In this document: positions 18,936-31,546 of the stretch, piece by piece
How the letters are laid out: every line of letters starts with the position of its first letter
Numbering within the stretch: the stretch's first letter is position 1
Origin: an uncultured Desulfobacteraceae bacterium
GTDB taxonomy: Bacteria > Desulfobacterota > DSM-4660 > Desulfatiglandales > Desulfatiglandaceae
Direction: 5' to 3'
Assembly (NCBI GenBank): GCA_964407525.1
Contig: CAYOWC010000003.1
Coordinates: 1,588-65,587, forward strand
Length of the DNA: 64,000 nucleotides
Position numbers and translations under genes: made by a program
The notes under the pieces: generated by a model
What the model was told of the DNA's origin: nothing
Databases searched by the model: none
Seen by the model: the letters and a program-made list of their open reading frames with translations, nothing else

Positions 18936-19505
18936 ATGAAAAGAACAATCGCAATTTTAGCACCTTTGTTTCTTCTGGCACTCGCAGGCTTCGCCTCTGC
19001 TGAATTTTTTGACAATGGGGATGGGACTATAATCGATAATAATACCGGTATGGTATGGCAAAAAGCATTTGTTAAAGGTGACCACGATGCCTCCAATAGA
19101 TATTGTGAGCAATCAGATACTGGGGGATATTATGATTGGAGAATCCCTACCCTGGCTGAATTACAGGTTATTATAGACCCGACCAGAAATGATCCATCTA
19201 TTTACCCTGAATTTTCCTGTGCAAGTGAAAAATTTTGGAGTTGTACACTTAGCTCGAATGGCAATTCGTTCTGGGTAATAAATTTTGCTAACGGTGAGAA
19301 CTCTAAAGGCTCAGGTAAATATGTACGATGTATAAGAAATGGCAAATTTGTAAGCGATTGTGCCACTCTTGAAAGCAACCTGGATATCAGTATCCCATGT
19401 CTTGATTACAATGGTGCTCAATTTATTTTGAAACTAAAGTATTACACAGACTCCTCACTTCCAGAAGGGTTCTATTGGGAATTAGACTCTATTCAAGAAA
19501 AATAA
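18936..19505 (+). CDS. Secreted DUF1566 (Lcl C-terminal-like) domain protein
   Basis: It has a signal peptide (MKRTIAILAPLFLLALAGFASA). DUF1566-type motifs are present (DNNTGMVWQK; YYDWRIPTLAELQ). GGGGAGG lies upstream of the ATG. Confidence 0.7.
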   Translation: MKRTIAILAPLFLLALAGFASAEFFDNGDGTIIDNNTGMVWQKAFVKGDHDASNRYCEQSDTGGYYDWRIPTLAELQVIIDPTRNDPSIYPEFSCASEKFWSCTLSSNGNSFWVINFANGENSKGSGKYVRCIRNGKFVSDCATLESNLDISIPCLDYNGAQFILKLKYYTDSSLPEGFYWELDSIQEK

Positions 19506-19689
19506 GCCACCAAGTAAAAAATATCCGCTCGGTTGTCAATGGTTTTGGCAGGTTGTGGGGGATGCGATACCTCTTGTTGTTGACTACTTGAAGAGTCATG
19601 GGTAACAATATTTATTAAGATTTATTGGAACACAAATCCTAGCGGATGGAAGCAGTTTGCTTTTTTGGGGAATAAATCGAAAAAAGTGC

Positions 19690-19718
19690 TTGACACAAGA
19701 AATTGATTGAATTATTAT
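19690..19718 (+). promoter_or_regulatory. Sigma-70 promoter of the ilv/leu operon
   Basis: TTGACA (19690-19695), a 17 nt spacer, then TATTAT (19713-19718). Confidence 0.55.
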
Positions 19719-19742
19719 TATTCTTTTGGAACGAAACTATTA

Positions 19743-19880
19743 ATGAGTGATTTGAGCGTTTTCATGAGTCCTATTGTAAATAGCATTATCGTCATTATCT
19801 GCGCAACGGGGGTCCTTGTATCCTTGTTGCTTAGCCTTTTGGTGGTCAAACCAAAATTCCCGGACCTGATAATGAGATAG
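19743..19880 (+). CDS. Ile/Leu/Val-rich leader peptide (45 codons) of a putative transcription attenuator
   Basis: My translation is MSDLSVFMSPIVNSIIVIICATGVLVSLLLSLLVVKPKFPDLIMR*. Of 45 residues, 21 are I, L or V. The ORF sits between the promoter and a strong terminator directly upstream of cimA. It is below the 60 aa cutoff of the ORF track. Confidence 0.5.
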   Translation: MSDLSVFMSPIVNSIIVIICATGVLVSLLLSLLVVKPKFPDLIMR

Positions 19881-19900
19881 TGAAACCAAGTAAGATTACA

Positions 19901-19939
19901 AAAACCGTTATCAGGCCCTCCTGATAACGGTTTTTTTTT
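19901..19939 (+). terminator. Intrinsic terminator (attenuator) upstream of cimA
   Basis: ccgttatcagg (19905-19915), loop ccct, then cctgataacgg (19920-19930), followed by T9. The octamer CCTGATAA also occurs at 19865-19872, inside the last leader codons. There it can pair with TTATCAGG (19908-19915) as an alternative antiterminator. Confidence 0.8.
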
Positions 19940-19967
19940 GCCTTAATGATAGAGATGGAGAATACCG

Positions 19968-21536
19968 ATGAATAAGAACGTTACTCTGTACGATACGACC
20001 CTTCGCGATGGGACCCAGGGGGAACAAGTGAATTTGTCTGCAGAGGACAAATTGAAAATTGCAAAAAAGCTCGATTCTTTCGGTATTCATTACATAGAAG
20101 GCGGGTGGCCCGGGTCCAACCCGAAGGACGCACGATTTTTTGAGATGGCGCGAAAAATTCCCTTCCAGACAGCAAGGCTTACGGCTTTTGGCAGCACACG
20201 AAGGGCGAATGTCTCGTCTGAAAAGGATGAAAACCTCAAAGCCCTCCTCATGACCGAAGTGGAAGTGGTTACCGTGTTCGGGAAGAGTTGGGATATTCAT
20301 GCCTCACACATCCTTCGAGTTTCGTTGGATGAAAATCTGGAGATGATTGAAGATACCGTTTCGTATATGAAACGAATGGGCCGTGAAGTAATCTATGATG
20401 CGGAGCATTTTTTTGATGGATACAGAAAAAATGAGGAATACGCTCTCCAATCGCTCAAGGCTGCGGAAGAAGGGGGGGCTGATGTTCTGGTGCTGTGTGA
20501 TACCAATGGCGGAACCATGCCGGATGATATCCGAAAAATCATAACAGATGTCCGATCAAAAGTGAGTCTTCCCCTTGGAATTCACGTTCATAATGATTGT
20601 GGGCTCGCTGTCGCTAATTCTCTTGTGGCAGTTCAGTGCGGCGTCAGTATGGTTCAGGGGACCATTAATGGGTATGGAGAACGGTGCGGAAATGTAGATC
20701 TCACATCCGTGATCGGCAATCTTCAGTTAAAGATGGGATATTCGTGTATTGCGAAAGAAAAGATGAATCAGCTCACTGACTTGTCACGTTTTGTAAGCGA
20801 TGTGGCCAATGTTCCTCCGTTGAACCATCGACCTTTTGTGGGGAAAAGCGCATTTGCCCACAAAGGAGGCGTTCATGTGAGTGCGGTCATGAAACTGCCG
20901 GAAGCCTACGAACATATCCCTCCCGGTCGTACCGGGAATCGACGCCGTATCCTGGTTTCGGATCTTTCAGGAAAAAGCAATATCGATTTTAAGGCTGGCG
21001 AAATGGGCATCAGCCTCGGTGGCAATGGTTATGACAGTGGGAAAATTGTTCAGGAAGTCAAGAAACTGGAGGATCAGGGGTATGAGTTCGATGCGGCTGA
21101 GGGTTCCCTGGAACTCTTAATCAAAAAAGTGACAGGGCAGTTTCTCGAACCTTTTTCTCTCGAATCTTTCAGGGTGACCACGGAAAAGGATCTTTCCAAT
21201 GAAAGCCTTTCTCAGGCCACTATCAAGATCCGTGTCGGAAATGATTATGAGATTACTGCTGCGGAAGGGGATGGTCCTGTGAGCGCCTTGGATAATGCCT
21301 TAAGAAAGGCTCTCATCAAGTTCTATCCTCGAATTGAAGAAATGGGTCTGGTGGACTTTAAAGTGCGCGTGATTGATGGAAACAAAGGTTCTTCTTCACG
21401 GGTGAGGGTTCAAATTGAATCGAGAGATAGTCGTGAGATCTGGTCGACTATCGGGGTATCGGAAAACATTATCGAGGCCAGTTGGCAGGCACTGGTAGAC
21501 AGTGTGCAGTATAAATTGTTAAAGGATATTGGATGA
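19968..21536 (+). CDS. cimA: (R)-citramalate synthase (LeuA-family, CimA type)
   Basis: The N-terminus is [54 protein letters not shown]. This is the form seen in Geobacter-type citramalate synthases rather than LeuA. It has a C-terminal LeuA-dimer-type regulatory domain. Confidence 0.8.
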
Positions 21537-21704
21537 AAACAAGCATGGAAATAAATGAACCACTGATTCAAAGGGAGAGCAGCGCCGCAGATGCCGGGTT
21601 TAACGGAAATCTGCGGTGTATCCTTATGACTGCAGTTTGAAAAAGTGACTACAGCGAAAGACTTTTGAACTGAATAGACACCAAATTCATAAGGAGATAC
21701 TTTA

Positions 21705-23261
21705 ATGGAAGACCGAATTATTATTTTTGATACGACTCTCAGGGATGGCGAGCAGTCTCCCGGAGCCAGCATGAACAGCGCGGAAAAGATGCGTCTTGCC
21801 GTACAGTTGGAGAAACTGGGGGTGGATGTGATGGAAGCCGGATTTCCGGCATCCTCGCCCGGCGATTTTGAATCAGTCCAGATGATTGCTGAAAAAATTC
21901 GGAATGTGGAGGTTACAGCCCTTGCCAGGACTGCGAAGGGAGATATCGACAAGGCATGGGGCGCAGTGCAAAACGCGGCAAAACCAAGGATTCACACGTT
22001 TATTGCCACATCGGACATTCATATGAAGTATAAATTGAAAATGTCCCGTGATCAGGTTGTCAGGGAGGCCGTGGAGGCGGTAAAATATGCGAGGACATTT
22101 ACGGACAACATCGAATTCTCAACAGAGGACGGGACTCGAAGCGACCGGGATTTTCTGTGCAGAATATTTGAGGCGGCCATTGAGGCGGGGGCTTCTACCA
22201 TAAATTTACCCGATACAGTGGGATACACTGTCCCTGAAGAGTTTTTCGAACTGGTTTCTTATGTGAGGGCCCACACACCCAATATCCACAAAGCGGTTAT
22301 GAGCATCCACTGCCATAACGATCTGGGACTGGCTACCGCGAATACTCTTGCGGGAATCAGGGCAGGGGCGAGGCAGGCGGAAGTTACGGTAAACGGCATT
22401 GGTGAGAGGGCAGGCAATACTTCTCTTGAAGAGATCGTTATGGCCCTTTACACCAGGATGAATGTGATGCATCTCAGTTCGTCCGTCAATGCCAAGGAGA
22501 TCTATCCGGCCAGCAGGCTTGTGTCTATGATTACCGGTATTGTCGTCCAGCCGAATAAGGCCATTGTTGGTGCCAATGCCTTTGCCCATGAGGCCGGTAT
22601 TCACCAGGACGGTGTATTAAAAAACCCCATGACGTACGAAATCATGAATCCCGAAACAGTCGGCCTTTCCAGCAATAAACTGGTGATCGGGAAACATTCC
22701 GGGAGACACGCTTTCAAGGAAAAACTGGCTGATCTGGGTTATGATCTGTCAAAAGATGAAATGAACATGCTTTTTGGGAAATTTAAGGATTTGGCGGATA
22801 AGAGAAAAGAGATTCTTGATGAGGATATTGAGGTTCTGGTAGCCGAGGAAATATTAAGGGTATCTGATATTTTTAAACTCGAATATCTGAATGTGGTAAG
22901 CGGCACTGTTGCAGTCCCCACGGCCACAGTGAAACTGATGATCAGGGATGAAGAAGCCCAGGGAGCTGGATTTGGTGTGGGTCCCATTGACGCGGCCTTC
23001 AATACCATTGCCAAGATGACCGGCAGTGAATCGAAACTGGTCCGTTTTTCCGTCAATGCCATCAGCGGTGGTATGGACGCACAGGGGGAAGTGACCGTTC
23101 GTTTGAAGGAGAATGGATTCGTGGCCCTGGGAAAAGGGGCCGATTCCGATATTATCACGGCCAGTGCCAAGGCCTTTGTAAACGGTCTGAACAGGCTTGA
23201 ATATATGAAAAATAACCCCACGCTTTCTCCTTACCAGAGAAGCCCGGCGACAGAGAGTTGA
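21705..23261 (+). CDS. leuA: 2-isopropylmalate synthase
   Basis: [19 protein letters not shown]... and [14 protein letters not shown] are present. It has a C-terminal LeuA allosteric domain. Length is 518 aa. Confidence 0.9.
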
Positions 23262-23269
23262 AAATTCAT

Positions 23270-23300
23270 GGTCTCGCGCAGAGACGCAGAGGCGCAGAGA
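23270..23300. repeat. Short GC-rich intergenic repeat (GGTCTCGCGCAGAG... family)
   Basis: The sequence is ggtctcgcgcagagacgcagaggcgcagaga. Its 14-mer GGTCTCGCGCAGAG recurs in inverted orientation at 41706-41719. Confidence 0.4.
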
Positions 23301-23362
23301 ATTGAATGACTTTTTTTGGTCTTGACGTTGGACAAACGGAGTTCTTACGAGGACATTAACTT

Positions 23363-24619
23363 ATGAATGCAATGACTATTACAGAAAAGATCCTGGCTTC
23401 CCATGCGGGAGTTGAATCGGTTAGTCCCGGGGAAATGGTGCAGGTGAAAGTGGATCTTGCCCTGGCCAATGATATTACAGCGCCCCTTTCCATCAATGTT
23501 TTTAACGAATTGGGGACGGACACGGTTTTTGATTGCGACAAGGTTGCTCTTGTCCAAGATCATTTTGTTCCCAACAAAGATATCCCTTCGGCCGAACAGG
23601 CTATGATCATGAAGAAATTTGCCTTGGAACACCAGGTTACTCACTATTACGATCTTGGTGAGGCAGGAATCGAGCATGTTATCTTGCCCGAGAAAGGGCT
23701 GGTGGTTCCGGGAGATGTGGTGATAGGGGCAGACAGCCATACCTGTACCTACGGGGCGCTTGGGGCTTTTTCGGCAGGTGTTGGCAGTACCGATCTGGGT
23801 GTTATTCTTGCCACAGGGTCTGTCTGGCTGAAGGTCCCCAAGACCATTAAGTTGGTGTACGACGGCAGTTTGGGGCCATGGGTGGGCGGAAAGGATCTGA
23901 TTCTCTTTACCCTGGGTCTGATCGGGAACCAGGTTTATAAAACCCTTGAGTTTTCAGGCCCGTTGATGTCTAACTTGCCCATGTCGGACAGATTGACTAT
24001 GGCTAACATGGCGGTGGAAGCCGGTGCTAAAAGTGGTATATTCGAGCCTGATGAGATTACAAGAGGATATCTCCAAAACCGGACAGACAGGGAGGGCGTG
24101 TATCTTTCCAGCGATCTCGATGCCGAATATGATCGAATCGTAGCCATCAATGTGGATGATATGGAACCCCAGATCGCCTGTCCTTCCACTCCGGATAATG
24201 TATATCCCGTATCCCAGGTCGAAAAGGTGGCTCTAGATCAGGTCTTTATCGGGTCATGTACGAACGGGCGTTTGGAAGATCTTCAAATAGCGGCGGATCT
24301 ATTGAAAGGGAAATCGGTGTGCCGTGGAGTAAGATTGATTGTTATCCCCGGATCTCCTGCCGTTTATAAGGAAGCGATCAAGAGGGGAATCGTTGAAACT
24401 CTTCTTGATTCCGGGGCTGTGATAGGACCTCCAACCTGTGGTCCATGTCTCGGAGGGCATATGGGGGTTCTGGCCAAGGGTGAAAAGGCTGTTTCGACCA
24501 CCAACAGAAACTTTGTGGGCCGGATGGGGCATGCGGAAAGCGAAGTGTACCTTGCCAGTCCTGCCGTTGCGGCGGCGTCGGCCGTTTTCGGAAGAATTGC
24601 CGGGCCGTCGGAATTGTGA
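23363..24619 (+). CDS. leuC: 3-isopropylmalate (and citramalate-pathway) dehydratase large subunit
   Basis: It belongs to the aconitase family (GADSHTCTYGALGAF; GSCTNGR; CGPCLG). Length is 418 aa. Confidence 0.9.
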   Translation: MNAMTITEKILASHAGVESVSPGEMVQVKVDLALANDITAPLSINVFNELGTDTVFDCDKVALVQDHFVPNKDIPSAEQAMIMKKFALEHQVTHYYDLGEAGIEHVILPEKGLVVPGDVVIGADSHTCTYGALGAFSAGVGSTDLGVILATGSVWLKVPKTIKLVYDGSLGPWVGGKDLILFTLGLIGNQVYKTLEFSGPLMSNLPMSDRLTMANMAVEAGAKSGIFEPDEITRGYLQNRTDREGVYLSSDLDAEYDRIVAINVDDMEPQIACPSTPDNVYPVSQVEKVALDQVFIGSCTNGRLEDLQIAADLLKGKSVCRGVRLIVIPGSPAVYKEAIKRGIVETLLDSGAVIGPPTCGPCLGGHMGVLAKGEKAVSTTNRNFVGRMGHAESEVYLASPAVAAASAVFGRIAGPSEL

Positions 24620-24650
24620 TTTGTAAGCCTATTCAGGAGGATAATTGGTT

Positions 24651-25148
24651 ATGAAATTTGAAGGTAGGGTATGGAAATTTGGCGATAATGTGGATACGGA
24701 TGTGATTATCCCGGCCAGGTTTCTCAATGTTTCAGACAAGGATGAACTGGCAAAAAACTGTTTTGCCGACGCGAGTCCCGGGTTTTCTGAAAAGGTTCAT
24801 CCGGGGGATATTATTGTAGCGGGGGATAATTTTGGTTCAGGGTCTTCGAGAGAACATGCGCCCCTGGCGATCAAGTTTGCAGGTATCGGGGTCGTTATTG
24901 CCAAGAGTTTTGCACGCATTTTTTATAGAAACGCTTTCAATATAGGCCTGCCTATTCTCGAAGCGCCTGAGGCGGATGACCTTTTCGAACAAGACGATCC
25001 CATTCGTGTGGATATTTCTTCCGGAAAGATCATGGGAGCGAAGGATGGAGAGGTTCTTTTTGCGAAACCTATTCCTGATTTTATGAGGAATATTATCAAT
25101 GCGGGCGGCCTGGTGGCCTATACAAAGAAGGCCCGTGAAACAAAGTGA
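24651..25148 (+). CDS. leuD: 3-isopropylmalate dehydratase small subunit
   Basis: [25 protein letters not shown]... and [10 protein letters not shown] are present. I prefer the ATG at 24651 over the track's TTG at 24645. Confidence 0.9.
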
Positions 25149-25155
25149 GGTAAGA

Positions 25156-26826
25156 ATGAAAAGTGACGCTATTAAAAAAGGGATCGACCGAGCACCACAC
25201 AGGTCTCTTCTCAAGGCAATGGGATATACGGACGAAGAAATCCGGAAACCGATTATTGGTATTGCCAGTTCCAGGAACGAGATTATTCCGGGACATATTC
25301 ACTTAGACAAAATCGTGGAAGCTGTCAAGGCGGGCGTGTACATGGCGGGCGGTACTCCCATGGTTTTCGGAACCATAGGGGTTTGCGACGGCATTGCCAT
25401 GAATCATGAAGGAATGAAGTATTCGCTGGCGAGTCGTGAACTGATCGCCGATTCCATTGAGGTAACGGCCATGGCCCACGCCTTTGACGGATTGGTTCTG
25501 GTACCAAACTGCGACAAAATTGTTCCGGGTATGCTTATGGCGGCAGCGAGATTGAATCTGCCTTCTATTTTTGTGAGCGGCGGTCCCATGTTAGCCGGTC
25601 GCCATCCGGATAAATCGAGCGACAAGAGGATTGATCTGGCCACGGTATTCGAAGCTGTCGGAGCGGTCCATGCCGGAAAGATGTCTCCCGAGATGTTGTC
25701 TGAGATAGAAGATGTTGCCTGTCCCACATGTGGTTCCTGCGCGGGGATGTTTACAGCCAATTCCATGAACTGCCTTACGGAAGCCCTGGGTATGGCCCTT
25801 CCGGGAAATGGTACGATTCCCGCCGTAATGGCTGCCCGTATCAGGCTGGCAAAGAAGACCGGAATGAGAATTATGGACCTTTTTAAAGAAGGTTTGACGC
25901 CGGACCAAATTATGACGGAAGATGCTTTCACCAATGCCCTTACAGTCGATATGTCGCTGGGATGTTCAACCAATACTGTTCTACATCTCTGGGCAATCGC
26001 TCTTGAGGCTGGTGTTACCCTGGATCTTGAGAAGTTAAATGATATCAGTTCAAAAACTCCTCATCTTTGCAAATTGAGCCCTGCAGGGACTGATCATGTG
26101 GAAGACCTTGATCGTGCGGGAGGCGTCAGTGCCGTCATGGGTGAACTGGCCGCCGCCGGCTTATTGAAAGGCACCGTCCTTACCGTCTCCGGAGAAAGTG
26201 TCGGAGATATGGCCGCCGCTGCCATGAATCTGAATAAAGAGGTCATTCGGCCCATTTCGGATCCCCACAGCAAGGAAGGAGGGCTTGCGGTTTTATTCGG
26301 AAATCTGGCCCCGGATGGATGCGTGGTGAAACAAGGTGCTGTTTCGAAAGAGATGATGGTCCACAAAGGGCCGGCAAGAGTCTTTGAATCGGAAGAGGAA
26401 GCGACTGAAGAGATCATGGCTGGCCGCATTAATAAGGGAGATGTGGTGGTGATTAGATACGAAGGGCCAAAAGGGGGACCGGGGATGCGCGAGATGTTGA
26501 CTCCCACTTCCGCCTTATCGGGCATGGGTATTGACAGCCATGTGGCTCTGATCACCGATGGGCGTTTTTCAGGTGCTACCAGGGGGGCGGCCATAGGCCA
26601 TATCTCTCCAGAGGCCATGGAGGGCGGTCCCATTGCGATCATTCAACCGGGAGATACCGTTATCATAGATATCCCAAACAGGACCATCACCCTGGACGTT
26701 CCCAGTGACGAAATCAAGGCACGTCTTGATGCCTGGAAGGCCCCTGCCCCCAGGATTACTACCGGCTATATGGCTAGGTACGCCCGGCACGTCTCTTCGG
26801 CCAGTAAAGGTGCGGTCTTTCGATAA
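25156..26826 (+). CDS. ilvD: Dihydroxy-acid dehydratase
   Basis: [24 protein letters not shown]... and [12 protein letters not shown] are present. The internal ATG at 25156 follows the leuD stop; the track start at 25099 overlaps leuD. Confidence 0.95.
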
Positions 26827-26841
26827 AACATAAGGAAGGAG

Positions 26842-28536
26842 GTGTTTGTCATCAAACAGAAAGGTTCCATAATACTACTGAACGCGCTAGCTGAAGAAGG
26901 CGTGAAAACCATTTTCGGTTATCCCGGCGCGGCCATTATTGACTTGAGCGATGAACTGGTCAAAACAGATATTAACCATATTCTGGTGAGGCATGAACAA
27001 GGCGCTGTCCATGCAGCAGACGGGTACGCCCGCGCATCGGGTGGAGTAGGGGTTTGTCTTGTCACATCGGGCCCCGGGGCTACCAATACCGTTACAGGAA
27101 TTGCATCGGCCTATTGCGATTCGATTCCCATTGTTGTAATCACCGGGCAGGTCCCCACAGGGCTGATCGGCAATGATGCATTCCAGGAGGTTGACATTGT
27201 TGGGATAACGCGGCCCTGCACCAAGCACAATTATCTTGTCACCAAGATAGAAGATCTAGGGAAAACCATAAAAGAGGCTTTTTATCTTGCGAGATCCGGT
27301 CGCCCGGGACCCGTCCTTGTGGATATTCCGAAAGATCTGTTTACCATGGAATTTGATTGTAAGTCTCAAGATTGCGTAAAGCTCCGATCATATAGTCCCA
27401 CATATGACCCGAATATAAGGCAGCTTAAAAAAGTTGCACGTTTGATCGAAAAAGCAAAACAACCATTGATTCTGGCGGGAGGGGGCGTCATTTTATCCAA
27501 GGGCTCCGATTCTCTGAAAAAATTTGCGGAAGCCATTGCTTCTCCTGTTACGTCCACGCTCATGGGCCTGGGGTGTTTCCCTACGCAGACTCCTTACTGG
27601 CTTGGTATGATCGGTATGCACGGGACGTACAGGGCGAATATGGCTTCCGCCAATTGTGATTTGCTTATCGCCGTCGGTGTTCGTTTTGATGATCGGGTGA
27701 CCGGAAAAATTGATGGATTTGCTCCCAAGGCAACCATTGTGCATATCGATATCGACCCCACATCGATAAGGAAAAATGTGTCGGTAAGTGTCCCTGTGGT
27801 GGGTGACTGCAAATTGACTCTGGATCTCTTAAACGAACTTTTGGAGGAGAAACCCCTTGGGGATCTTTCGGAATCCCGTGCTCCGTGGCTGGATCAGATT
27901 GAGGAGTGGAAGAGTACCAAGAAATTGAGCTATTCTCAAGATCAAGTGATCAAACCCCAGTACGTCATAGAGAAGTTGTACGAATTGACGAAAGGGGAGG
28001 CTATTATCACCACGGAAGTGGGGCAAAATCAGATGTGGGCTGCCCAGTACTACCATTTTGACAAGCCTAATTGTTTCATTACTTCGGGCGGGCTGGGATG
28101 CATGGGGTTCGGATTGCCGGCAGCCATAGGCGCCCAGATTGCGAGACCAGACAAGCTTGTTGTGGATGTTGCGGGTGATGGAAGTATCCAGATGAACATA
28201 CAGGAGATGGCAACCGCTGTGCAATACGGGCTTCCCGTTAAAGTCGTAATCCTGAACAACAGGTTTTTGGGGATGGTAAGACAGTGGCAGGAGTTGTTTT
28301 ACGACAAACGGTATGCGTGTACGGAAATGGATCATGCTCCCGATTTCATCAAACTGGCAGAGGCCTATGGGGCGGTTGGACTGAGGGCCACCAGCCCGGA
28401 AGAGGTCGAATCCGTTTTGAAAGAGGGTCTTTCTCTGCCAAAAACGGTTATAATGGAGTTCGTTGTTGAACAGGAAGAAAAAGTATACCCTATGGTGCCG
28501 GCGGGCGCGCCGATTACTGAAATGCTATTGGTGTAG
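26842..28536 (+). CDS. ilvB: Acetolactate synthase (AHAS) large subunit
   Basis: A ThDP enzyme (GYPGAAI; GGLGCMGFGLPAAIGA; GDGSIQMNIQE). It uses a GTG start preceded by AAGGAAGGAG. Confidence 0.9.
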   Translation: MFVIKQKGSIILLNALAEEGVKTIFGYPGAAIIDLSDELVKTDINHILVRHEQGAVHAADGYARASGGVGVCLVTSGPGATNTVTGIASAYCDSIPIVVITGQVPTGLIGNDAFQEVDIVGITRPCTKHNYLVTKIEDLGKTIKEAFYLARSGRPGPVLVDIPKDLFTMEFDCKSQDCVKLRSYSPTYDPNIRQLKKVARLIEKAKQPLILAGGGVILSKGSDSLKKFAEAIASPVTSTLMGLGCFPTQTPYWLGMIGMHGTYRANMASANCDLLIAVGVRFDDRVTGKIDGFAPKATIVHIDIDPTSIRKNVSVSVPVVGDCKLTLDLLNELLEEKPLGDLSESRAPWLDQIEEWKSTKKLSYSQDQVIKPQYVIEKLYELTKGEAIITTEVGQNQMWAAQYYHFDKPNCFITSGGLGCMGFGLPAAIGAQIARPDKLVVDVAGDGSIQMNIQEMATAVQYGLPVKVVILNNRFLGMVRQWQELFYDKRYACTEMDHAPDFIKLAEAYGAVGLRATSPEEVESVLKEGLSLPKTVIMEFVVEQEEKVYPMVPAGAPITEMLLV

Positions 28537-28569
28537 TCCGATATGGATGGAAACTAAAGGATAGTATTT

Positions 28570-29094
28570 ATGAACGGAAAAAATGAAGAAAAACATTATC
28601 TTTCTCTCATGGTGGAAAATCGACCGGGGGTATTGTCTCGCATCGTGGGTCTTTTCAGCGGCAGAGGTTTTAATATTGAAAGCCTTTGCGTGGCGGAGAC
28701 CTTAGAAGCGAACATATCAAGGATCACCCTGGTAACCCGTGGAGATATGATGATTATTGAGCAGATAAAAAAACAGCTCAATAAGTTGATCAATGTAATC
28801 AAGGTAACGGACCTTACAAATAGGAAATTTGTCCAGCGGGATATGGCCCTGGTGAAGGTTCGGGCCCGGCCGGAAAATCGTGCTGAAATCCTGCGGATGG
28901 TGGATATTTTCAGGGGCAGGGTTGTGGATGTGGGGAGCGAATTCTTCACCGTGGAGGTTACAGGCGATTTGGGTAAGGTGAAGGCGTTCTTAAAACTTTT
29001 AAAGCCGATGGGCATAAAAGAAATCGCGAGGACCGGCACCATTGCCCTTGCTCGCGAAGATAATAAGGAGAGAAAGCGAAATGGCAGAGATTGA
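28570..29094 (+). CDS. ilvN: Acetolactate synthase small (regulatory) subunit
   Basis: ACT-domain start (HYLSLMVENRPGVLSRIVGLFSGRGFNIESL). Length is 174 aa. Confidence 0.9.
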   Translation: MNGKNEEKHYLSLMVENRPGVLSRIVGLFSGRGFNIESLCVAETLEANISRITLVTRGDMMIIEQIKKQLNKLINVIKVTDLTNRKFVQRDMALVKVRARPENRAEILRMVDIFRGRVVDVGSEFFTVEVTGDLGKVKAFLKLLKPMGIKEIARTGTIALAREDNKERKRNGRD

Positions 29095-30136
29095 TTTTGG
29101 CGGTATTTTGGAAAATGTGGTTACTTCCGAGGAATTCAGCCTGGAAAAGGCAAGAAAAGTCCTTGAAAATGAAACCATAGCGGTTTTGGGCTATGGGGTT
29201 CAGGGGCCGGGGCAGGCTTTGAATCTTAGGGACAATGGGTTTCGTGTTATTGTGGGCCAACGACAGGACAGTCTCTCGTGGGACCTGGCTGTCAAGGATG
29301 GTTTTGTGCCGGGGGAGACCCTTTTTCCCTTGGAAGAAGCTGCCAAAAAGGGGACAATGATTGAGTTTCTGGTTTCGGATGCAGGCCAGGTGGCCGTCTG
29401 GCCCAAGATTAAAAAATATCTTGAGCCTGGAAATGCCCTCTGTTTTTCTCACGGTTTTGCCATTACCTACAAGGACCAGACCCAGGTCATTCCGCCTGAA
29501 GATGTAGACGTCATTCTTGTTGCACCAAAAGGATCAGGCAGAACGGTACGCACCAATTTCCTGCAGGGCAGTGGGATAAATTCCAGCTATGCTATCTTCC
29601 AGGATTATACGGGAAGAGCGGAAGAAAGGACCTTGGCTCTTGGGGTCGGCATCGGTTCGGGGTATCTGTTTCCTACGAATTTCCAGAAGGAAGTCTACAG
29701 CGATCTGACCGGGGAAAGAGGAGTCCTCATGGGTTGTCTTGCAGGAACCATGGAAGCCCAGTATAATCTCTTACGTAAACATGGACATAGTCCCAGTGAG
29801 GCCTTCAATGAAACGGTGGAGGAGCTTACCCAGAGTCTCATTCGCCTGGTAGCGGAAAACGGCATGGACTGGATGTTTGGAAATTGCAGCACCACGGCGC
29901 AGAGGGGAGCCCTCGATTGGTCGCCAAGGTTCAGGGATGCGGTTGCTCCGGTATTTGATGATCTCTATGAGAGTGTCAAATCGGGGAAGGAGACGGAGAT
30001 CGTTCTGGATGCAAACAGCCGACCGGACTATCGTAAGAAGCTTGAAGAGGAACTCAAGGTTATCAGAGAATCCGAAATGTGGAAAGCGGGTTCGGCCGTG
30101 CGCGGTTTGCGCCCGGAGAACAGGAAGAAAGTGTAG
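29081..30136 (+). CDS. ilvC: Ketol-acid reductoisomerase
   Basis: The ATG at 29081 (MAEIDFGG...) lies within the ilvN 3' end, a 14 nt overlap. GYGVQGPGQALNLRDNG Rossmann motif. Confidence 0.9.
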   Translation: MAEIDFGGILENVVTSEEFSLEKARKVLENETIAVLGYGVQGPGQALNLRDNGFRVIVGQRQDSLSWDLAVKDGFVPGETLFPLEEAAKKGTMIEFLVSDAGQVAVWPKIKKYLEPGNALCFSHGFAITYKDQTQVIPPEDVDVILVAPKGSGRTVRTNFLQGSGINSSYAIFQDYTGRAEERTLALGVGIGSGYLFPTNFQKEVYSDLTGERGVLMGCLAGTMEAQYNLLRKHGHSPSEAFNETVEELTQSLIRLVAENGMDWMFGNCSTTAQRGALDWSPRFRDAVAPVFDDLYESVKSGKETEIVLDANSRPDYRKKLEEELKVIRESEMWKAGSAVRGLRPENRKKV

Positions 30137-30161
30137 AGCCTGATGATTTACGGGATATTGC

Positions 30162-30971
30162 ATGGATAATCTGAAAGTCGGTGTGGTCTGCATGGGGGCC
30201 ATTCCCGGTGAGATTGAGAGAAATCTCGACAAGATAGAGGCCCTGGCATCGGATGCTATGGAGAATAGGGCCGATATCGTCTGTTTCCCGGAATTTTCCG
30301 TAACGGGGTATGCTCTGGATAGTCCGGACCTGATCTGCAGTAGGGAGGATCCTGAAAAAATTGCGGATCGTCTGTGCCGGATTTCTGCTGATTTGGGTTT
30401 GATTCTCCTGGCGGGTCTCATTGAGTATTCAGCAAGTTGCAGGCCACACATCGCGCAGATTATCACCGGGCCTGAGGGGGTCATTGGTCGTCACTACAAG
30501 ACTCACCTCGGGCCCACGGAAAGAAATTTTTATGAAGAAGGGCATGAAATCTCTCCATTTACCTATGGGGATCTCTGTTTCGGTGTAGAACTCTGCTATG
30601 AGGCGCACTTTCCTGAAATCAGCAGCACCCTGGCCCTGAAAGGGGCCGATATCCTTTTCATTCCCCATGCATCTCCGAGGGGAAGTCCGGAAGAGAAATT
30701 GAACAGCTGGAAAAGGCATCTTCCTGCTCGGGCTTTCGATAACGGTCTCTTTGTCGTGGCCTGCAACCAGGTTGGGGAAACTCCCCAGGGACTCCATTTT
30801 CCTGGCGTAGCGATGGTATTTGGACCGGATGGTTGTTTATTAGACTGGTATGCGGGGGACGAAGAACGGGTGCTTATCGTGGAATTGAAGGGGGAAGACT
30901 TGGAGAAGGTGAGAGAACACAGAATGAGATATTTTCTTCCCGAAAGAAGGGAAGAACTTTACGGGCCTTGA
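30162..30971 (+). CDS. Carbon-nitrogen hydrolase (nitrilase-superfamily) protein
   Basis: Elements of the Glu-Lys-Cys triad are present (VCFPEFSVTGY; the catalytic-Cys context GVELCYEAHFPE). Length is 269 aa. Confidence 0.75.
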   Translation: MDNLKVGVVCMGAIPGEIERNLDKIEALASDAMENRADIVCFPEFSVTGYALDSPDLICSREDPEKIADRLCRISADLGLILLAGLIEYSASCRPHIAQIITGPEGVIGRHYKTHLGPTERNFYEEGHEISPFTYGDLCFGVELCYEAHFPEISSTLALKGADILFIPHASPRGSPEEKLNSWKRHLPARAFDNGLFVVACNQVGETPQGLHFPGVAMVFGPDGCLLDWYAGDEERVLIVELKGEDLEKVREHRMRYFLPERREELYGP

Positions 30972-30981
30972 TAAATTGCAC

Positions 30982-31020
30982 AAAAAAAGCGTAGAAGATG
31001 CTTTATCTTCTACGCTTTTT
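30982..31020. terminator. Bidirectional intrinsic terminator between the convergent nitrilase-family gene and dsrC
   Basis: A7, then gcgtagaagat (30989-30999), loop gcttt, then atcttctacgc (31005-31015), then T5. The flanking A and T tracts allow termination in both directions. Confidence 0.7.
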
Positions 31021-31063
31021 GGTGTGGCTATAAACTTCATTTCCGTGTTGAACAGAATTGAAA

Positions 31064-31387
31064 TTATACGCACCCTGTAGGTTTCGGCAATCCGGCCATC
31101 TTACAGGCGCCTTTACCCGGTCCTGAGGGAAACAGCTCATAGATATATTTCAGCTTGTAACCTGTCACTTTGGACAGAATCCTGACCATGGGCGCTATTC
31201 CGTTTTTCTTGTAGTAGGCCTGCAGAACCTCTACAACCTTCTTGTGTTCGTCCGTCAATTCATCAATACCTTCCGTTGACTTAACATAGATCATCCAGTC
31301 TTCTGACCAATTGTTGAAGTCGTCGATAAAACCATCTTCATCAACATTGAAGGACTTCCCTTCATATTCGATTGTCGGCATACCCAA
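31064..31387 (-). CDS. dsrC: DsrC (TusE/DsrC family) sulfur-carrier substrate of DsrAB
   Basis: A 107 aa protein ending ...GKGACKMAGLPKPTGCV. Both conserved C-terminal-arm cysteines are present, one penultimate and one 11 residues upstream of it. Confidence 0.9.
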   Translation of the reverse strand: MGMPTIEYEGKSFNVDEDGFIDDFNNWSEDWMIYVKSTEGIDELTDEHKKVVEVLQAYYKKNGIAPMVRILSKVTGYKLKYIYELFPSGPGKGACKMAGLPKPTGCV

Positions 31388-31467
31388 AAACCTCCCTTTT
31401 TGTTAAAATAAAATATTTTGCCCCATCTCTATTATCTATATACGAGACTAAAAACCATAAGTAGCAA

Positions 31468-31496
31468 ACTATAATTCAGGAATTGTTTCTTGTCAA
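31468..31496 (-). promoter_or_regulatory. Sigma-70 promoter for dsrC
   Basis: The minus strand reads TTGACA (31496-31491), a 17 nt spacer, then TATAGT (31473-31468). It lies in the 160 nt dsrN-dsrC spacer. Confidence 0.5.
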
Positions 31497-31546
31497 ATAT
31501 TCTTTTCCAACTTTTCAAAAAAAGTTTCGGCACCCTTCATTTGTCA

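Follow-up and report, generated by a model that had tools for sequence, protein, structure and literature searches.

The leader that precedes the branched-chain amino-acid operon cimA-leuACD-ilvDBNC of an uncultured Desulfobacteraceae bacterium, on the 64,000-nucleotide (nt) stretch of DNA analysed here (hereafter the window), is very probably a ribosome-mediated, or leader-peptide, transcription attenuator built of four alternately pairing RNA segments, as judged from comparison of related sequences and predicted folding. Ribosome-mediated attenuation had been proposed in a first-pass annotation of the same DNA, and this reading is strongly supported by conservation, by covariation, by in-frame runs of isoleucine (Ile) codons and by the match between leader codons and operon content. 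The element combines a short conserved open reading frame (ORF), in-frame codons for the end products, an intrinsic terminator, an exclusive antiterminator, the stop-codon geometry of an attenuator and a protector helix. All features described below lie on the forward (+) strand.

The leader ends with an intrinsic terminator (19900-19939). It consists of CCGTTATCAGG (19905-19915), a CCCT loop (CCCU in the RNA) and CCTGATAACGG (19920-19930), followed by nine T residues (19931-19939; U9 in the transcript). The stem has 11 base pairs (bp), and flanking A-U pairs lengthen it to 16 bp. Its sequence is present in one copy in the window, with none expected by chance. The end of the U tract is separated from the cimA ATG (19968) by 28 nt, and this interval contains no promoter-like site. 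The sequence TTATCAGG occupies 19908-19915, and CCTGATAA occurs twice, at 19920-19927 and at 19865-19872. The terminator with its U9 tail, its distance to cimA and the repeated CCTGATAA had all been placed correctly in the first-pass annotation.

Segment 1 (19784-19799), ATT ATC GTC ATT ATC, is the anti-antiterminator arm and encodes I-I-V-I-I, the main regulatory codons. Segment 2 (19862-19882), GG-A-CCUGAUAAUG-AGAUAGUG, comprises the last six leader codons and the stop codon, and its partner is either segment 1 or segment 3. Segment 3 (19905-19917), CCGUUAUCAGGCC, serves the terminator as its 5′ arm and the antiterminator as its 3′ arm; segment 4 is the 3′ arm of the terminator. The region 19725-19945, the folding of which had been suggested as a check, gave a minimum-energy fold of -66.9 kcal/mol (z = -4.9), and none of 200 shuffled sequences was as stable. 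Both the terminator and the antiterminator states were found, and their energies were compared. The minimum-energy fold contains the 1:2 and 3:4 pairings, with segment 1 paired to 19868-19882. When the 3′ arm of the terminator was left out, 19862-19874 paired with 19906-19917 through 10 bp plus 2 bp across a one-base bulge. The alternative pairing had been foreseen, but as a helix of 8 bp, which is too short. The terminator hairpin has an energy of -21.4 kcal/mol and the antiterminator of -14.9 kcal/mol. For the full transcript, the combination of 1:2 and 3:4 reaches -65.0 kcal/mol versus -50.5 kcal/mol for 2:3. Before segment 4 exists, the 2:3 state has -48.1 kcal/mol and the 1:2 state -43.8 kcal/mol. 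The protector (1:2) helix, which contains the regulatory codons, had been overlooked earlier. Because the Ile codons are themselves segment 1, the element can be read as a full four-segment attenuator with 1:2, 2:3 and 3:4 pairings. The minimum-energy fold also includes a hairpin internal to the leader ORF (19803-19830), GCAACGGGGGU / AUCCUUGUUGC, which encodes A-T-G...S-L-L-L and may serve as a structural spacer or, more conjecturally, as a pause hairpin.

A sigma-70-type promoter (19690-19718) is found upstream, with a -35 box TTGACA (19690-19695), a 17-nt spacer and a -10 box TATTAT (19713-19718), exactly as first annotated. It matches the consensus at 11 of 12 positions and is the top-ranked promoter-like site on the + strand between 18.5 and 32 kb in a consensus scan. 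TTGACA-17-TAnnnT was seen at the equivalent place in the related loci L001, L003, L006, L010, L015 and L018 when the sequences were compared by eye. Transcription would start near 19725, about 7 nt past the -10 box.

The frame that follows opens with an ATG at 19743 and closes with TAG at 19878-19880 (MSDLSVFMSPIVNSIIVIICATGVLVSLLLSLLVVKPKFPDLIMR). Its 45 codons include 21 for Ile, leucine (Leu) or valine (Val), so that the coordinates and composition originally given are correct. The frame and the stop codon were borne out by the comparison with relatives, but the start was not: the leader probably begins at the second ATG, at 19764, giving a peptide of 38 codons plus TAG (19764-19880; MSPIVNSIIVIICATGVLVSLLLSLLVVKPKFPDLIMR). 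The start was placed there because the nearest relative, L001, the cimA of which is 91% identical, has ACA at the codon equivalent to 19743 and opens its frame at the second ATG; because the ATG is mostly 3-8 codons ahead of the Ile run, both family-wide, with 7 as the commonest distance, and in most long-type leaders; and because TTGAG-N7-ATG recurs in L001, L004 and L005. In the window, a weak Shine-Dalgarno sequence, GAG (19754-19756), stands 7 nt 5′ of the ATG at 19764. The upstream in-frame ATG and its seven extra codons (MSDLSVF, 19743-19763) are probably not the conserved start. An in-frame ATG precedes the codon run in 95 of 108 related loci. Beyond the internal hairpin, a putative second regulatory codon run, S-L-L-V-V (19833-19850), shows the lowest sequence conservation of the leader (identity 0.49-0.66). 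The Leu and Val content of this second run is higher where the operon holds leuA or ilv genes.

The following mechanism is proposed. From a start about 7 nt after the -10 box, RNA polymerase would transcribe the leader while a ribosome translates the 38 codons of 19764-19880. With well-charged Ile-, Leu- and Val-tRNAs, the ribosome would reach the stop codon and cover segment 2 (19862-19882). Segment 3 would then pair with segment 4, and the terminator of 11-16 bp with its U9 tail would release RNA polymerase 28 nt before cimA. If charged tRNA-Ile were scarce, the ribosome would stall on I-I-V-I-I (19785-19799), that is on segment 1. If charged tRNA-Leu or tRNA-Val were scarce, it would probably stall in the V-L-V-S-L-L-L-S-L-L-V-V stretch. 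Either stall would leave segment 2 uncovered and unpaired, available to the emerging segment 3 (12 bp, about -15 kcal/mol), and the operon would be transcribed as no terminator could form. In a transcript that is not translated, segments 1 and 2 would pair, again favouring termination. Translation of the leader, stalling and the kinetics of folding are presumed in this scheme.

The consequences of ribosome position were modelled by masking a 28-nt footprint codon by codon along the leader and recomputing the pairing probabilities (P). With the aminoacyl (A) site at most positions up to 19851, the 2:3 pairing forms with P of about 1, the exception being an A site at 19830-19842. With the A site at 19854, P(2:3) falls to 0.07, and beyond it, as far as the stop codon, to 0. 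Over this whole range, including 19854, segment 3 is about half unpaired. The geometry originally put forward, in which a ribosome at the stop codon masks the upstream copy of the repeat, agrees with these values.

Related leaders were sampled through 80 cimA loci, fetched independently of what precedes the gene. The element is present in 12 of the 28 closest loci, from metagenome-assembled genomes (MAGs) labelled Desulfatiglandales, Desulfobacteraceae, Syntrophaceae, Smithella and Syntrophales. All 12 carriers have a small Ile-rich ORF with its stop codon 23-43 nt ahead of the terminator. The comparison of orthologous leaders that had been advised as a check returned Ile codon runs conserved in frame. 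In an alignment of 13 sequences (A1), 92.9% of the cells of the terminator helix are paired and four pairs are changed on both sides, with 24-48% for slid controls. For the antiterminator helix, 87.7% of the cells are paired and four pairs (12 cells) are changed on both sides, with 26-45% for slid controls. In Smithella-type loci, segments 2/3/4 switch jointly from CCUGAUAA/UUAUCAGG/CCUGAUAA to CCUGGCAG/CUGCCAGG/CCUGGCAG. The leaders of this type keep their Ile runs (IIEIIIRGIII, TIITNIIV). Since the runs persist where segments 2-4 have been switched, the Ile codons are not a by-product of the stem sequence. In the Desulfobacterales proper among the 80 loci, cimA stands behind ilvC within an operon and is not preceded by the element there. 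A covariance model built on segments 2-4 (R1) matched only its 13 training loci among the 80, a result that bounds the family taxonomically and adds no members.

A wider family was collected with a scan for segments 3 and 4 alone, with one genome per species, which returned at least 120 loci. Among the matches listed, the titles are those of Desulfobacterota-type MAGs, Desulfatiglandales and Syntrophales among them, except for one Aminicenantes and one labelled only 'Proteobacteria', and the next gene is cimA in 92 cases, leuA in 12 and ilvB in four. As segment 2 was outside the search pattern, its conservation is an independent test. The complement of segment 3 in the last leader codons has a mean energy of -17.2 kcal/mol, versus -8.4 kcal/mol for shuffled sequences and -7.4 kcal/mol downstream (104 distinct loci). 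A 2:3 duplex of -10 kcal/mol or stronger can form in 92% of the loci versus 11% of the controls. In most of the 104 loci, the end of segment 2 is at most a few bases away from the stop codon, and the stop codon lies 23-43 nt 5′ of segment 3 in most loci of the family. A run of at least four Ile in eight codons is found in frame in 84 of 108 loci, compared with four and one in the other two frames and one in shuffled sequences. The runs draw on all three Ile codons. ATA is usually a rare Ile codon, read by a dedicated tRNA; it accounts for 30% of the leader Ile codons family-wide (224 of 749).

This distribution bears on an alternative, in which the terminator merely ends an upstream unit, either the small ORF or the gene ending at 19505, and is read through constitutively with no regulation. 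Strong, bidirectional-looking terminators are indeed common between genes, and the stem has an A run on one side and a T run on the other. However, a near-consensus promoter separates the leader from the upstream gene, more than 100 genomes have the element with cimA, leuA or ilvB irrespective of what precedes it, and a conserved competing helix with compensatory changes would be purposeless there. This explanation is scarcely credible.

The helices within the leader ORF were assessed in an alignment of 50 long-type leaders (A2). For the 1:2 helix, 78.6% of the cells are paired versus 24-53% with slid partners, and the core UCAUUAUC/GAUAAUGA is kept; in short-type leaders, the support for this helix is qualitative only. 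For the internal hairpin, 92% of the cells are paired and five pairs are changed on both sides. In a contig about 92% identical, the changes A19806G and T19827C together convert an A-U into a G-C pair, a compensatory change in this hairpin. A second hairpin at 19837-19856 was considered and is not claimed, its conservation being weak (65.7% of the cells paired versus 40-58% with slid partners).

A conserved membrane peptide had been named as an alternative in the first-pass annotation. In this reading, the small ORF would be a separate gene that encodes a conserved single-pass membrane peptide and is closed by a terminator of its own; cimA would be expressed from elsewhere and the pairings would be incidental. 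The product of 38-45 amino acids (aa) is hydrophobic and resembles a transmembrane helix, and the long-type peptides are alike across many genomes. The conserved stretches of the peptide nevertheless all coincide with RNA helices, the part outside the helices is poorly conserved (0.49-0.66), and within the helix segments the third codon positions are as conserved (0.81-0.90) as positions 1 and 2. In short-type relatives, the leaders have 18-28 aa and are not membrane-like, yet both their Ile runs and the RNA switch are preserved. Leader codons also vary with the operon regulated, and just 28 nt without any promoter-like site separate the terminator from cimA. The leader peptide has no match in Pfam or NCBIfam. 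As conservation is at the RNA level and not at the peptide level, the membrane peptide was removed as an alternative, and it is regarded as highly improbable.

The codon content of the leaders follows the genes downstream. Where cimA stands alone or in cimA-leuCD, the leader has Ile only (for example MRARNTIISIIAIDGIIIG...). In front of cimA-ilvD-ilvBN-ilvC, it has Ile plus Val (...GIIAVVVGIIISLL...). In front of cimA-leuA-leuCD-ilvBN, Ile codons are followed by a Leu run with some Val, and the leader of the window is of that type. Operons led by leuA have leaders rich in Leu and Val with few Ile (MNINTINIISGNAVEVLLVVVSLLVLG..., MERIPITSIMGLRRVELLLVLDLLVV...). The Ile fraction is 0.20 before cimA versus 0.14 before leuA (p = 0.0007) and the Val fraction is 0.06 versus 0.12 (p = 0.02), the loci being phylogenetically non-independent in both comparisons. 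The contrast is kept within single MAGs, namely JASFIT, with cimA and ilvB copies, and JAOZOW and CAYTUL, each with cimA and leuA copies. The signal at the core of the family is isoleucine, in line with the place of citramalate synthase, which catalyses the first step from pyruvate towards Ile. The fused operon of the window carries a composite Ile+Leu+Val leader, in which Leu and Val presumably contribute.

It was also considered that the hairpin switch is set by a metabolite, by an uncharged tRNA in the manner of a T-box or by an RNA-binding protein, the ORF being incidental. The conservation of segments 3 and 4 across orders is unusually high, the terminator 3′ arm carries the tRNA-Ile motif described below, the Shine-Dalgarno sequence of the leader is weak, and related lineages such as Geobacter have a leuA T-box (PMC2700814). 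Against this, about 100 loci share the frame, its ATG, the in-frame runs of Ile codons and a stop codon situated on segment 2, Ile is not enriched in either of the other frames, and the runs outlast the replacement of segments 2/3/4 in the Smithella type. The leader also lacks the conserved complex fold expected of a ligand pocket. No T-box (RF00230) was detected in 19000-20500 at E ≤ 10, and no Rfam family reached its gathering score in 19000-31500, contrary to the possibility, allowed for at first, that a covariance model would identify a T-box or riboswitch here. Sub-threshold matches to atoC, mir-451 and rli60 covered the terminator hairpin only and were rejected; that to rli60 was on the opposite strand, with 22.8 bits versus a gathering score of 60. 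A switch operating without the ribosome is thus considered very unlikely.

Hardly any variation is seen in the terminator stem CCGUUAUCAGG / CCUGAUAACGG, either among several orders of Desulfobacterota or among the paralogous cimA, leuA and ilvB leaders. Complementarity among four segments might not be the sole cause of this invariance if a trans-acting tRNA or protein also read the stem, which would make the element a hybrid sensor. The terminator 3′ arm, CCUGAUAA, contains CUGAUAA, the sequence of the anticodon loop of tRNA-Ile(GAU). This motif, together with a 5′ arm with matching codon context, could provide a basis for such a sensor. The hybrid is nonetheless judged decidedly unlikely.

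Several observations weigh against leader-peptide attenuation in the form proposed, or against parts of it. The Shine-Dalgarno sequence of the leader is a weak GAG, and its enrichment in the family is modest (-3.7 versus -2.55 kcal/mol). The compensatory signal of the 2:3 and 3:4 helices comes largely from one clade (L010, L015, L018), so that the independent compensatory events are few. At equilibrium, the untranslated transcript lacking segment 4 favours 2:3 over 1:2, and default termination without translation therefore rests on co-transcriptional kinetics. When the A site is on L-S-L-L-V (19830-19842), the 1:2 helix re-forms around the ribosome in the simple footprint model. Of the stall geometry initially proposed, the release of segment 2 at the Ile codons is reproduced, but not its release by a ribosome in this part of the Leu run, where 1:2 is obtained instead. 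Such re-forming around a ribosome is sterically doubtful. Because the equilibrium model gives 2:3 for the untranslated RNA and 1:2 at the Leu run, kinetics and sterics are treated here as presumptions, as is the contribution of the Leu and Val codons. Finally, several loci with cimA alone still have 5-7 Leu codons. Not every Leu codon need be a sensor, since S-L-L-L is also the 3′ arm of the internal hairpin.

The four-segment attenuator resembles known systems. In Escherichia coli and Salmonella, the leaders of ilvGMEDA (ilvL) and ilvBN (ivbL) mediate multivalent attenuation by Ile, Leu and Val. Like these, the element has a short leader ORF with many Ile, Leu and Val codons, an intrinsic terminator directly ahead of the first structural gene, terminator and antiterminator helices that exclude each other, a protector helix with the regulatory codons and one leader for several end products. 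It differs in belonging to another phylum and in its first gene, which encodes citramalate synthase, an enzyme that enterobacteria do not have for making Ile. Its leader is also longer, with a conserved hairpin inside, its terminator stem hardly varies between orders, and one scaffold serves cimA, leuA and ilvB with re-tuned codons. The 1:2, 2:3 and 3:4 pairings, the regulatory codons in segment 1 and a stop codon positioned so that a terminating ribosome masks segment 2 are those of the textbook E. coli trp attenuator. Unlike trp, the element would sense Ile, and probably Leu and Val, and its segments 1 and 2 are spaced by about 65 nt, which include an additional hairpin.

Leader-peptide control of branched-chain operons outside enterobacteria is also described for the leucine-rich attenuator peptide of Staphylococcus aureus (PMC5794164), the upstream ORF of Corynebacterium ilvBNC (PMC10272879) and the Listeria ilv leader Rli60 (PMC5864092). 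The sequences are unrelated, and those operons begin with ilv genes, not with cimA. Neither sequence nor covariance-model similarity was found to the curated Rfam leader families (Leu_leader, Thr_leader, leu/phe leader, rli60). A comparison within the former 'deltaproteobacteria' is the Leu-specific T-box upstream of Geobacter leuA (PMC2700814), to which the first-pass annotation had rightly alluded as a Leu T-box reported for leu genes in some deltaproteobacteria. The pathway is shared and a terminator/antiterminator switch is present in both 5′ leaders, but the sensing there is done by uncharged tRNA that binds the RNA, whereas here the sensor would be a translated codon run, with no T-box detectable.

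A 2010 survey listed leader peptides as then known only in Proteobacteria and Actinobacteria, to which its authors added new cases in Firmicutes (PMC2965389). In the full-text literature searched, which does not cover subscription journals, no leader-peptide attenuator was found described in Desulfobacterota or before cimA, and a 2004 paper on delta-proteobacterial regulons (PMC545781) contains none of the relevant terms. Rfam likewise yielded no description of the family. The element thus belongs to a large Desulfobacterota family that is apparently undescribed, although the mechanism itself is textbook. A single leader of 215 nt would explain the control of the whole branched-chain operon in a sulfate reducer that uses the citramalate route. 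In more than 100 genomes of Desulfobacterota, the hypothetical small ORF in front of cimA, leuA or ilvB could then be annotated, as a rule, as a leader peptide. Leader-peptide attenuation would extend to a phylum in which only a T-box was found reported for this pathway (PMC2700814). The family would also illustrate a modular evolution of attenuators, with a near-fixed terminator scaffold reused and only the leader codons re-tuned, even within one genome.

The regulated operon (19968-30971) consists, according to NCBIfam, of cimA, leuA, leuC, leuD, ilvD, ilvB, ilvN, ilvC and a nitrilase-family gene. The ribosome-binding site of cimA, GGAG (19957-19960), precedes the start codon at 19968-19970, and the product matches TIGR00977 with 745 bits. 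No strong terminator and no Rfam element were found inside 19968-30971, and the nine genes presumably form a single transcription unit. A second, Leu-specific leader between cimA and leuA was considered and rejected: the candidate, a 35-aa ORF (21533-21640), has no Leu run and is not followed by a terminator. The window stems from a salt-lake metagenome, and the matching assembled contigs are from metagenomes of salt lakes and sediments and from one run of uncertain type. Metatranscriptomes contain almost none of the sequence of the window. A contig from a run labelled 'RNA?' spans the terminator unbroken; it may be DNA.

The longest ORF for ilvD (25099-26826) overlaps leuD (24645-25148) by 50 nt. 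The ilvD start is probably further downstream, since the NCBIfam alignment begins at residue 18-33. The nitrilase/C-N hydrolase gene (30162-30971) ends the operon. It is also found directly after cimA or leu genes in L106, L143 and other Desulfobacterota loci, with operon strings such as 'cimA-nit', 'leuA-nit' and 'cimA-leuA-leuC-leuD-nit'.

Among the wider family, the first ORF after the attenuator of L187 is 1041 aa long, of which only the first 479 aa are leuA-like; it is a fusion with the next gene or an assembly artefact. The MAG JAFDDR01 has two attenuator-cimA loci (L135 and L154), the cimA of which are 75% and 71% identical to that of the window, which reflects a genuine duplication or else a bin of mixed origin. 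Between the terminator and cimA, L002 (343-447; CACCCCCACCC...GGGTGGGGGTGGG) and L005 (about 1433-1500) carry GC-rich inverted repeats of 40-85 nt, and both resemble small palindromic repeat elements that have landed 3′ of the terminator. In cimA loci of other phyla (Paenibacillaceae, Acidobacteriota), runs such as VIIIIKYI and YINIAIII are encoded upstream of the gene, at -306 in L038, -131 in L057 and -137 in L049 relative to the cimA start and without the Desulfobacterota terminator motif. These runs may be independent Ile leaders.

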